DNA from: Chloroflexota bacterium
GTDB taxonomy: Bacteria > Chloroflexota > Anaerolineae > B4-G1 > SLSP01
Reading direction: 5' to 3'
DNA: 32,000 bases
Assembly: GCA_019873725.1 (NCBI GenBank)
Contig: JAIOAS010000010.1
Coordinates: forward strand, 7,214-39,213
The notes under the pieces: generated by a model
Told to the model about the DNA's origin: nothing
What the model saw: the letters and a program-made list of their open reading frames with translations, nothing else
Databases searched by the model: none
Program-made: the position numbers and the translations under genes
Part shown: positions 25,008 through 26,956 of the stretch, piece after piece
Layout: each line of letters starts with the position of its first letter
Position numbering within the stretch: position 1 is the stretch's first letter

Positions 25008-25343
25008 ATGACCGAAACAACTTCATGTGCGCTGTGTGCCCCGGCGTGTTGTTCACTGGACATCTCCGGCGACGATCAAAAGCGTCTGGTGGCGATGTTC
25101 AAGGCGCTCGGCAATCCGATCCGCTTCGAGATCATCAAGTTCCTGGCCACCCATCCTGGCTGCATCACCGGCGACATCGTGGATTACCTGCCCATCGCCC
25201 AGGCGACCGTCTCACAGCACCTCAAAGTTCTGCGCGAAGCCGGCTGGATTTCAGGCATCACCGAAGGCCCCGCCCGCTGCTACTGCCTGAACGCCGAAAA
25301 CATCGCATGGTTCCGGGAACAGATTGTGCAGATTATGAGCTGA
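25008..25343 (+). CDS. arsR: ArsR/SmtB-family metalloregulator
   Basis: FKALGNPIRFEIIKFLATHPGCITGDIVDYLPIAQATVSQHLKVLREAGWI is a winged HTH. The N-terminus is Cys-rich (CALCAPACC). RBS AAGGAGG. Confidence 0.85.
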   Translation: MTETTSCALCAPACCSLDISGDDQKRLVAMFKALGNPIRFEIIKFLATHPGCITGDIVDYLPIAQATVSQHLKVLREAGWISGITEGPARCYCLNAENIAWFREQIVQIMS

Positions 25344-25345
25344 TC

Positions 25346-25408
25346 GGTAGACAGTAGACAGCAGACGGTAGACAGGGCCGTCTACTGTGTACTGTTTGCC
25401 GTCTACTG
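25346..25408. repeat. Two opposed heptamer arrays (NGTAGAC x4 / CTACTG-type x4) forming a long imperfect hairpin between arsR and hgcA
   Basis: ggtagac agtagac agcagac ggtagac | tctactg tgtactg tttgccg tctactg. About 22 of 31 positions are complementary by hand alignment. Confidence 0.7.
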
Positions 25409-25424
25409 AAATGGAGGATACAAA

Positions 25425-26393
25425 ATGAATACAACACCAGATCTGATGCACACCACCAGCACTTTGACCTTTGCCCATCATTGGGATCATTTTCTGGCGC
25501 GGTGGGGGTACCGGCGCGGCGAGCATCGCGTGACGCCGGGATTGTATGCGCTCGGTCAACCGACGCCGGAGTCGCCGGTTTTCGTGACGGCGAACTACAC
25601 GCTCAGTTTCGATGCGCTACGCTCGTCCCTGCCAGGCGTGGACGGCTACATTCTTGTATTGGACACGCAGGGCGTCAACGTGTGGTGCGCCGCCGGCAAG
25701 GGCACGTTTGGCACGGACGAGATCGTGCGCCGCGTTGAGGCAACGCGGCTATCCGAGGTGGTCAGCCACCGCACGCTGATCCTGCCGCAGTTGGGCGCAC
25801 CCGGCGTCGCTGCGCACGAGGTCAAGCAGCGCACAGGCTTCAAGGTGGAATACGGCCCTGTGCGCGCCGCCGATTTGCCGGAATACCTCAAGACGCATCA
25901 GGCCACGCCGGAGATGCGGCAGGTGCGGTTCCCCTTGCGCGACCGGCTGGTGTTGATCCCTGTGGAATTAGTTCACCTCGCCGGACCCACGGCGTTGGCG
26001 GCGCTCGTGTTGGCCGTCCTGCTGGGGCCATTGGCGGCATCGGGCGCGGTGGCGGCAGTTTTGGCCGGAGCGGCGTTGTTCCCCATCCTGCTCCCCTGGC
26101 TGCCCACCGAGGACTTTAGCAGCAAAGGCTTCATCCTGGGTGGGCTGACCGCGCTGCCGCTTGCGCTGGCGTCCCGGAAGCGTGGCGAGGGACGCGGGTG
26201 GCCACTGGCTTACCTGTTGAGTCTGCCGCCGGTAACCGCCTTCCTCGCGCTCAACTTCACCGGCGCGACGCCGTTCACGTCCAAATCGGGCGTGAAACGC
26301 GAAATGTTCCGGTACATTCGCGTGATGGCGGGGATGTTCGGCGCTGGGGTGTTGTTGGCGCTTGGGCTGCGGTTGACGCGGCGAGCAAAGTAA
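25425..26393 (+). CDS. hgcA: Mercury-methylation corrinoid protein HgcA (corrinoid-binding domain + C-terminal TM domain)
   Basis: LVLDTQGVNVWCAAGKGTFGTDEIV contains the N(V/I)WCA(A/G)GK cap-helix motif with the Cys ligand. Flanking PGLYALGQP..PVFVTANYTLSFDALR and LILPQLGAPGVAAHEV are also present. The C-terminal ~140 aa form 4-5 hydrophobic helices. Confidence 0.8.
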   Translation: MNTTPDLMHTTSTLTFAHHWDHFLARWGYRRGEHRVTPGLYALGQPTPESPVFVTANYTLSFDALRSSLPGVDGYILVLDTQGVNVWCAAGKGTFGTDEIVRRVEATRLSEVVSHRTLILPQLGAPGVAAHEVKQRTGFKVEYGPVRAADLPEYLKTHQATPEMRQVRFPLRDRLVLIPVELVHLAGPTALAALVLAVLLGPLAASGAVAAVLAGAALFPILLPWLPTEDFSSKGFILGGLTALPLALASRKRGEGRGWPLAYLLSLPPVTAFLALNFTGATPFTSKSGVKREMFRYIRVMAGMFGAGVLLALGLRLTRRAK

Positions 26394-26416
26394 TCCCATC
26401 GAAGACAAAGATTTTA

Positions 26417-26468
26417 CCACTAATCTTCACGAATTTACACTAATTTTTTCTATTCGTGGAGATTAGTG
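26417..26468 (+). repeat. 17-bp-stem hairpin repeat (CCACTAATCTTCACGAAT / ATTCGTGGAGATTAGTG) downstream of hgcA; terminator-like
   Basis: Only one G-U position in the stem. A T-rich tract (TTTATTTTT) follows ~12 nt later. It is related to ATTCGCGTTGATTAGCGAGATTAGCGG at 22190-22220. Confidence 0.4.
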
Positions 26469-26491
26469 TCGATCCGTGGTTTATTTTTCGA

Positions 26492-26587
26492 GGAGTGTAA
26501 CCGAACCTGCGGTACAGCCCCGATAATGAAAATGGGCGCAGGACTATTCGACTAACGACTATCAGACTATTTTCAGAGGAGCAGCAA
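26492..26587 (+). promoter_or_regulatory. 96-bp leader cassette, copy B (includes RBS, abuts the hgcB start codon)
   Basis: See 2423-2518. Same length, same blocks, same distance to the ATG. Confidence 0.6.
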
Positions 26588-26956
26588 ATGACAACTTGTA
26601 ATGAAGCAACAGGCGCAACCGGTACGCGAACCGGGTTTGTGGCGCAGAGCAAGCGCAACACGTTGGCGTTCAACGCGGACGCCTGCATCAACTGCGGGAT
26701 GTGCAGTGCGGTGTGCCCGCAGGGTGTGTTCGCGCCGGGCGTGCGGGGAGCGCGGCGGGTGCAGATCGTGCGGGCAGATGCCTGCATGGAGTGCGGCGCG
26801 TGTATGCGCAACTGCCCCACCGGCGCGCTATTCGTGGACAGCGGTGTGGGTTGCGCCGCCGCGATGATCACAGAGGCGTTGCGTGGTCTGAAAAAACCCA
26901 CGTGTGGCGCGCCAGAGCCAACTTGTTGTGGCCCTGAGGCGGCCTGCTGTGGCTGA
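26588..26956 (+). CDS. hgcB: HgcB, 2x[4Fe-4S] ferredoxin partner of HgcA
   Basis: CINCGMCSAVCP and CMECGACMRNCP (the C(M/I)ECGA signature). The tail is Cys-rich with vicinal Cys (..PTCCGPEAACCG). Confidence 0.75.
   Translation: MTTCNEATGATGTRTGFVAQSKRNTLAFNADACINCGMCSAVCPQGVFAPGVRGARRVQIVRADACMECGACMRNCPTGALFVDSGVGCAAAMITEALRGLKKPTCGAPEPTCCGPEAACCG

Follow-up and report, generated by a model that had tools for sequence, protein, structure and literature searches.

The arsR-hgcA-hgcB locus is a three-gene unit of an uncultured member of the Anaerolineae (Chloroflexota; assembly GCA_019873725.1, contig JAIOAS010000010.1). It lies in a 32,000-nucleotide stretch of that contig, referred to here as the window. 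The unit is most likely a bona fide mercury-methylation locus with HgcAB chemistry, whose ArsR repressor would be relieved by arsenic, and we give this reading a probability of roughly 0.85. HgcA is the corrinoid protein of mercury methylation and HgcB is its partner ferredoxin with two [4Fe-4S] clusters. The only genes known to determine methylmercury formation in microbes are hgcA and hgcB. Chloroflexota, especially the Anaerolineae, often carry hgcA in sediments, paddies and peat.

HgcA and HgcB

The second gene of the unit encodes a 322-aa protein that, judged by its sequence, is a genuine HgcA, encoded by a separate gene and not as a fused HgcAB-like protein. Discrimination from paralogues rests on the curated cutoffs of NCBIfam hidden Markov models (HMMs). 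The HgcA_corrinoid model (NF040863) scores 443.1 bits against a cutoff of 275 and pairs residues 8-315 with profile positions 2-322 of 325. The fused HgcAB-like model fails at 207.9 bits (cutoff 285), as does the model of the gamma subunit of the corrinoid/iron-sulfur protein (CFeSP) at 80.6 bits (cutoff 306). An earlier interpretation made from the letters alone, called here the sequence-only reading, had proposed HMM searches and a separation from CFeSP and fused paralogues as checks on HgcA; the cutoff of the HgcA model is exceeded by 168 bits. Pfam finds only a CdhD-type corrinoid domain in the protein.

The same reading had described a diagnostic cap-helix motif and a C-terminal multi-helix membrane domain, and both are present. 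The motif is GVNVWCAAGKGTF at residues 83-95, with NVWCAAGK at 85-92. Cys88, within NVWCAAGK, is the sole cysteine of HgcA. Across 41 HgcA homologues, N85-A90 (Cys88 included) and K92 are invariant, and G91 is nearly so. Hydrophobic segments lie within residues 175-318, where five helices are predicted. An AlphaFold model made from the 41 homologues has a predicted local distance difference test score (pLDDT) of 78.4 and consists of an alpha/beta domain and, after it, a set of five long helices (171-321), predicted at residues 171-200, 202-225, 231-252, 258-279, and 287-321. The best Foldseek match of this model is 9a0b_A, a deposited HgcAB model (E 3.6e-20, 43% identity), and the next are the CFeSP structures 2ycl, 4c1n, 2h9a, and 4djd (E 6e-8 to 1e-6). 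In a phmmer search of PDB sequences, HgcA matches CFeSP large subunits over residues 35-157 only.

HgcB is best described by the HgcB_ferredoxin model (NF040864), by far the best-scoring family, at 96.4 bits against a cutoff of 99. The match covers profile positions 7-93 of 93. The two CX2CX2CX3C clusters claimed by the sequence-only reading are found as CINCGMCSAVCP at residues 33-44 and CMECGACMRNCP at 66-77, and the vicinal-cysteine tail is found as CC pairs at 113-114 and 120-121. Cys89 sits in the motif GVGCAA. Both cluster motifs, Cys89, Cys106, and Cys113-114 are invariant in an alignment of the close relatives and Desulfoluna spongiiphila AA1. In HgcB of Pseudodesulfovibrio mercurii ND132, the conserved cysteine after the clusters and the terminal CC are presumably those numbered Cys73 and Cys94/95. 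Pfam recognizes generic Fer4 domains only.

HgcB also has clade-specific extensions at both ends. The N-terminal extension, of about 20 residues (residues 1-24; 26588-26660), contains a conserved Cys4. The tail (residues 105-122; 26900-26956) adds Cys106 and, in the closest relatives only, the second CC pair. The score just under the NCBI cutoff coincides with these extensions and is probably caused by them.

The chemistry of HgcAB, with methyl transfer to Hg(II), was reportedly set out by Parks and colleagues in 2013, and we infer the same Hg(II) methylation activity for the pair in the window. HgcA would be a membrane-anchored corrinoid protein in which Cys88 of the cap helix ligates cobalamin. 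The cob(I)alamin under this helix would be methylated, and HgcA would then pass the methyl group to Hg(II). HgcB would supply low-potential electrons to re-reduce the corrinoid, with Cys89 and the C-terminal CC as the presumed Hg-handling thiols.

ArsR and its candidate operator

The first gene of the unit encodes a member of the ArsR family, with matches to PF01022 (HTH_5; 43.3 bits, cutoff 22) and NF033788 (63.9 bits, cutoff 55). The sequence-only reading had placed an ArsR-family regulator with a cysteine-rich N-terminus directly upstream of hgcA, which holds: the N-terminus contains Cys7, Cys10, Cys14, and Cys15. The further cysteines, Cys52, Cys91, and Cys93, fall on cysteines of the CIC...CYC pattern in the Desulfoluna homologue. 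Among PDB sequences the best match, though a weak one (46 bits, E 4.5e-11), is to the arsenic-responsive ArsR 6j0e_A, and the phmmer alignment sets Cys14, Cys15, and Cys52 opposite its Cys15, Cys16, and Cys55.

The cysteines suggest two overlapping candidate As(III) sites, an unusual arrangement. One would be formed by the N-terminal CC and Cys52, and the other by Cys52 and Cys91/93; ars-linked relatives mostly retain just one of the two. The N-terminal CC is kept throughout the clade. In a census of ArsR relatives, 31 retain the N-terminal CC and Cys52 with only one of Cys91/93, and 35 retain Cys52, Cys91, and Cys93, with Thr at position 54 and no N-terminal CC. The hgcA-linked ArsR proteins of Anaerolineae retain both cysteine sets.

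An arsR gene upstream of hgcA was said by the sequence-only reading to be reported for several methylators, and the literature bears this out. It is found in 14 of 31 confirmed methylators (PMC10349881). In P. mercurii ND132, arsR is co-transcribed with hgcAB and is arsenic-responsive (bioRxiv 10.1101/2022.10.17.512643). Also described are hgcA genes in Chloroflexi and a conserved regulator ahead of hgcAB, for which transcripts have been seen in Chloroflexi (PMC7438021).

The predicted promoter of the unit lies directly ahead of arsR (Table 1) and is the only promoter-like site on the plus strand within 24700-27300. Its -35 hexamer falls in the loop and 3' arm of the terminator-like hairpin that ends the preceding gene. 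The candidate ArsR operator is a perfect palindrome, TATCGTA-AAAA-TACGATA (TATCGTAAAAATACGATA), that begins 2 nt past the -10 hexamer and ends 11 nt short of the arsR ATG. The palindrome is unique in the window, where 0.01 matches are expected by chance. No second promoter or operator is found between arsR and hgcA.

Neither the two promoter hexamers nor the palindrome vary among relatives whose HgcA identity goes down to 75%. At all 10 of the close genome loci, the palindrome lies 26-46 nt ahead of the arsR start, in some as a tandem duplicate. The same palindrome precedes the hgcAB-adjacent arsR of Desulfoluna spongiiphila AA1, a Desulfobacterota isolate and thus a member of a different phylum. 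It also matches the DNase-I footprint of ArArsR, reported as 5'-TTTTATCGTAATATTGCGATCACAATC-3' (PMC11868830); binding by the ArsR of the window is predicted. In the literature searched on the hgcAB regulator there is no mention of an operator or palindrome (zero occurrences in bioRxiv 10.1101/2022.10.17.512643), and one may be described elsewhere.

A metagenome scan with an alignment of this ArsR gave 80 relatives at 56-91% identity. Of these, 71 have 100 nt or more of upstream DNA, and 69 of the 71 carry the palindrome within 160 nt upstream when up to two mismatches are allowed; it is enriched 27-fold upstream of arsR compared with the rest of the same loci. Only the six closest of the 80 relatives are followed by hgcA. 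The 56 downstream genes at the other loci include 27 ArsP_1-family permeases and 19 double-domain methyltransferases, and all three methyltransferases tested pass the NCBI arsenite-methyltransferase model (321-331 bits, cutoff 263). These ars-type loci (L094-L167 in our numbering) usually have a second palindrome 20-190 nt after arsR, before the arsP-type or arsM-type gene. Their layout is operator-arsR-operator-cargo, whereas hgcAB loci have the single upstream site. This ArsR type is mainly an ars-operon regulator, which may be a new observation. The palindrome was also considered as a signal specific to hgcAB. This is ruled out, as the relatives not linked to hgcA are ars-linked and carry the site, usually twice.

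Regulation of the unit is proposed to work as follows. Transcription would start from the single strong promoter. An ArsR dimer bound to the palindrome, just past the -10 hexamer at the expected transcription start, would block it. As(III) or methylarsenite would bind Cys52, Cys91, and Cys93, possibly aided by Cys14 and Cys15, and release ArsR from the DNA. The three genes would then be expressed as one transcript, with hgcA and hgcB, neither of which has its own operator or promoter, reached by read-through. The hairpin between arsR and hgcA (25344-25409) and the hgcA-hgcB spacer are candidates for tuning the ratio of the three products. Both the arsenic effector of ArsR and the co-transcription of the trio are thus predictions, drawn by analogy.

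Conservation, alternative readings and locus context

HgcA of the window has thousands of homologues in a protein search, the closest of which are 91-94% identical; no identical sequence is found in that search, the best match being 94%. Named close relatives are annotated as [quoted passage not shown] or, in older entries, as "carbon monoxide dehydrogenase". A scan of species-representative genomes returns metagenome-assembled genomes (MAGs) of Anaerolineae/Chloroflexota at 82-93% identity, and other Chloroflexota, Desulfobacterota, and archaea at 56-72%. The window and a 92% relative have the order hgcA-hgcB-nitroreductase-rsmF-...-APH-permease in common, so the window belongs to that lineage. 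All close relatives keep the arsR-hgcA-hgcB trio, even with other flanks; it is found at 89-91% identity and again, amid wholly different flanks, in a 75% relative. In a set of 87 loci, hgcA is followed by hgcB at every locus with sufficient downstream DNA. Nei-Gojobori ratios of nonsynonymous to synonymous substitution (dN/dS) are 0.08-0.20 for arsR, hgcA, and hgcB against six relatives, including carriers of the same spacer insertions. The three genes are therefore kept under purifying selection.

Other hgcA neighborhoods hold other ArsR subfamilies, some of the alpha3 "ELCVC" type and some with a "CCC" motif (loci L015, L064, L067, L069, L075, L078, and L080; L037, L039, L040, and L052). 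The TATCGTA-N4-TACGATA palindrome is absent at all of these loci. It seems that the ArsR type paired with hgcAB varies from lineage to lineage.

The spacers of the unit are less conserved than its genes. The hairpin between arsR and hgcA is composed of about four direct and then about four inverted copies of the heptad GTAGACN. Relatives in which only 8-30 nt separate the two genes lack it, and GTAGACN arrays occur at other intergenic positions of related Anaerolineae contigs (L004, 2140-2161; L014, 3533-3589). This hairpin is probably a lineage-specific insertion from a family of repeats resembling repetitive extragenic palindromic (REP) elements. It was also considered as a terminator or a second operator. 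Both roles are rejected, given that it has no U-tract, is missing in short-spacer relatives, and shares its heptads with unrelated intergenic spots.

The 194 nt that separate hgcA from hgcB, on which the sequence-only reading was silent, contain a hairpin with a 17-bp stem (26418-26434 / 26452-26468). The hairpin is present in relative L001 with one compensatory change (T>C with A>G) and absent from L002, where the spacer is 27 nt. Among close relatives the spacer ranges from 27 to 236 nt, and its sequence is common to L001 only. It is accordingly rejected as a conserved functional element and is an insertion outside the conserved unit. Both spacer hairpins fall outside the conserved design because they are absent or different in relatives. 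Rfam gives nothing credible, either for the whole window at gathering thresholds or for 24900-27000 at permissive E-values, and these empty scans rule out known RNAs, riboswitches included, in either spacer.

Several observations weigh against a methylating, arsenic-controlled unit. The cap-helix residues 84-94 are modelled poorly (pLDDT below 50), and HgcB falls 2.6 bits short of its NCBI cutoff. The likeness to ArArsR is drawn from cysteine spacing and the footprint in the literature rather than from aligned protein sequences. Genes for cobalamin biosynthesis or supply and for methyl donors were not found within the window, and the literature searched reports no cultured representative of this clade that methylates Hg. 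The -39 kcal/mol hairpin and the 194-nt hairpin spacer could attenuate or uncouple expression. The low HgcB score, the Pfam matches to just CdhD and generic Fer4 domains, and the older "carbon monoxide dehydrogenase" annotations would suit a non-methylating paralogue, either CFeSP/CdhD-like or fused HgcAB-like, next to a generic 2x[4Fe-4S] ferredoxin. That identity is very improbable, as the HgcA model is far exceeded where the HgcAB_like and CFeSP models fail, hgcA and hgcB are separate and unfused, the CFeSP matches are limited to the corrinoid region without the membrane domain or cysteine, and the HgcB match takes in the GVGCAA cysteine and the terminal CC. The spacers raise the question of a decaying or silent unit, in which the heptad hairpin and the 194-nt insertion uncouple hgcA and hgcB from the promoter. 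Both spacers do contain stable hairpins, and the tightest relatives, with arsR-hgcA gaps of 8-13 nt and an hgcA-hgcB gap of 27 nt, have neither insertion. Decay is nevertheless improbable: the three reading frames are intact with good ribosome-binding sites, the low dN/dS extends to comparisons with relatives that carry the same insertions, and no U-tract directly follows either hairpin.

The alternative with the most weight accepts a true HgcAB and questions its purpose. Its native role would be a function in the arsenic regulon, such as corrinoid methyl transfer, or other corrinoid chemistry, such as halomethane dehalogenation, and Hg methylation would be a side reaction. The ArsR/operator module drives arsP-type permeases and arsenite methyltransferases elsewhere, ND132 hgcAB is arsenic-responsive (bioRxiv 10.1101/2022.10.17.512643), heterologously expressed HgcAB dechlorinates CCl4 according to a 2026 preprint, and the scanned ORFs of the window include no identified mer gene or other gene specific to Hg. 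On the other side, sequence cannot tell the substrates of HgcAB apart, all HgcA and HgcB residues known to matter for Hg methylation are kept, and a different native role is itself compatible with a capacity for methylation. We consider such a role possible, with the odds against it. A bolder proposal is that hgcAB in this Anaerolineae lineage moved wholesale under an arsenic-sensing ArsR/operator module, that trivalent arsenic and not mercury switches its expression, and that the native job of HgcAB could be arsenic-related methyl transfer. This is speculative and rather unlikely as a whole. If true, the methylmercury output of abundant sediment and soil Anaerolineae would be turned on by trivalent arsenic. 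The favored reading, a methylating unit under an arsenic-relieved ArsR, predicts through its regulatory part that arsenic co-contamination could control hgcAB beyond the single model strain ND132.

The boundaries of the unit agree with the sequence-only reading, with exact agreement on the ORF coordinates of all three genes. A GGAGG-type ribosome-binding site, a good Shine-Dalgarno sequence, precedes each gene, and the local GC content is about 0.61. The 0-nt junction between hgcB and the convergent gene also stands, with the hgcB TGA at 26954-26956 followed directly by TTA (26957-26959), the opposite-strand stop. The convergent gene had been called an F420-type nitroreductase, in keeping with TIGR00026 at 77.2 bits (cutoff 46.35). 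It is present next to hgcB in relatives L001-L003 and absent in L004-L007. This gene is a syntenic neighbor outside the arsR-hgcA-hgcB system.

Upstream of arsR lies a co-oriented plus-strand cluster (16224-24919) of MarR, methyltransferase, and phosphoenolpyruvate (PEP)-utilizing-enzyme genes. The last of these encodes a 923-aa protein with PPDK_N and PEP-utilizers domains. The term "xenobiotic-modification-like" that the sequence-only reading gave to its neighborhood is a guess. Methyltransferase and LCM genes likewise precede arsR in L002. A defense-like cluster is found on the minus strand at 2626-12582, in which no HmaA helicase was identified. P-type ATPase and SEC-C genes sit between the defense-like and methyltransferase clusters. 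The GC content falls to 0.49-0.54 over positions 1-3000 of the window.

Table 1. Features of the arsR-hgcA-hgcB unit and of its surroundings, in window coordinates
Feature	Position	Strand	Description
Terminator-like GC hairpin and T-run	24937-24962	+	Ends upstream PEP-utilizing-enzyme gene; 9-pair stem with 7 GC pairs, then TTTTTGTTGT
Predicted sigma-70-type promoter	24950-24977	+	TTGACA-16 nt-TACAAT; 11/12 consensus matches
Candidate ArsR operator	24979-24996	both	Perfect palindrome
arsR	25008-25343	+	111 aa
Hairpin of GTAGACN heptad repeats	25344-25409	+	Between arsR and hgcA; -39.2 kcal/mol, z = -6.8
hgcA	25425-26393	+	322 aa; corrinoid protein of mercury methylation
hgcA-hgcB spacer	26394-26587	+	194 nt, AT-richer; hairpin at 26418-26468
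hgcB	26588-26956	+	122 aa; 2x[4Fe-4S] ferredoxin
Deazaflavin (F420)-dependent nitroreductase-family gene	26957-27514	-	PF04075/TIGR00026; convergent, abuts hgcB
DUF1156 methylase	2626-5781	-	PADLOC HmaB match, 267 bits
CAP-domain protein	6704-8494	-	Between HmaB- and HmaC-like genes
ASCH+DUF7680 protein	8501-9499	-	Between HmaB- and HmaC-like genes
DUF499 AAA+ ATPase	9496-12582	-	PADLOC HmaC match, 356 bits
Small protein with terminal SEC-C motif	12920-13576	-	
P-type cation ATPase	13740-16208	+	E1-E2 ATPase and Cation_ATPase N- and C-terminal domains
MarR	16224-16706	+	
Class I methyltransferase	16712-17359	+	
Three or four LCM-family methyltransferases	within 16870-18222; 20166-21290; 21295-22110	+	
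Two PEP-utilizing-enzyme proteins	18529-20163; 22148-24919	+	

Comparison with known systems

HgcAB of ND132 is a close known counterpart of the enzyme pair. HgcA of ND132 (9a0b), about 43% identical to that of the window, is likewise composed of a corrinoid domain with the NVWCAAGK cap-helix cysteine and a five-helix membrane domain. Its HgcB is also a separate 2x[4Fe-4S] protein encoded downstream of hgcA, with an internal cysteine and a terminal CC. HgcB of the window differs in its N-terminal extension of about 20 residues with Cys4 and in its longer tail with a second CC pair. The window further differs in its 194-nt gap between hgcA and hgcB and in its Chloroflexota host, for which methylation is a prediction.

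Close loci are found in Anaerolineae/Chloroflexota MAGs such as JBNGDO010000006.1 and DAOLUH010000013.1, whose HgcA proteins are 92-93% identical to that of the window. They share the order arsR-hgcA-hgcB-nitroreductase-rsmF along with the heptad hairpin, the palindrome, and the promoter, and differ in spacer lengths and partly in upstream neighbors.

CFeSP is the comparison for the corrinoid fold. Its large subunit (AcsC/CdhE; 2ycl, 4djd) has the corrinoid alpha/beta domain in common with HgcA, at 27-28% identity over about 125-138 residues. It lacks the membrane domain and the cap-helix cysteine of HgcA, and the N-terminal Fe-S domain and TIM barrel of CFeSP are absent from HgcA of the window.

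The structure 6j0e, which we take to be CgArsR of Corynebacterium glutamicum, offers one comparison for the regulator. CgArsR is of type 3, with As(III) ligands Cys15, Cys16, and Cys55 (PMC11868830). Its pattern, an N-terminal vicinal cysteine pair and one cysteine before the recognition helix, is present in the window ArsR as Cys14, Cys15, and Cys52. CgArsR lacks the CYC pair of the window ArsR, and it controls ars operons.

ArsR2 of ND132 (DND132_1054) is, as in the window, upstream of and co-oriented with hgcAB. Its cysteines 47/49/86/88 (CxC...CxC) correspond in spacing to positions 52/54/91/93 of the window ArsR, which has three of these four cysteines and, in addition, Cys7, Cys10, Cys14, and Cys15 at its N-terminus. 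The Desulfoluna homologue, used here to represent the four-cysteine type, is of the same type as ArsR2. It has the palindrome and is 43% identical to the window ArsR.

ArArsR of Arsenicibacter rosenii SM-1 is a "new type" of ArsR responsive to As(III) and MAs(III), the As(III) ligands of which are Cys41, Cys80, and Cys82, with Cys43 dispensable (PMC11868830). The intervals between the ligand cysteines, 39 and 2 residues, are those of Cys52, Cys91, and Cys93 in the window ArsR, where Thr54 takes the place of Cys43. The ArArsR operator TATCGTAATATTGCGAT and the window palindrome have equal half-sites and spacing. In both systems the operator precedes the gene of the regulator itself, an autoregulatory arrangement. 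The footprint of ArArsR overlaps its -35 element; the window palindrome lies just past the -10 hexamer. The window ArsR lacks the C-terminal CC of ArArsR and has the CC-containing N-terminal extension instead, and the cargo is hgcAB in the window and arsM-arsC for ArArsR.

Chloroflexi hgcA, an upstream arsR, arsenic-responsive control by ArsR2, and an HgcA at 92% identity have all been described already, so the locus is a further example of a known hgcAB type. The enzyme pair is ordinary, and the locus adds nothing new on the HgcAB enzyme. Three points may be new: the operator as an explicit sequence, the identity of that operator with the ArArsR footprint, and the primary association of this ArsR type with ars operons.

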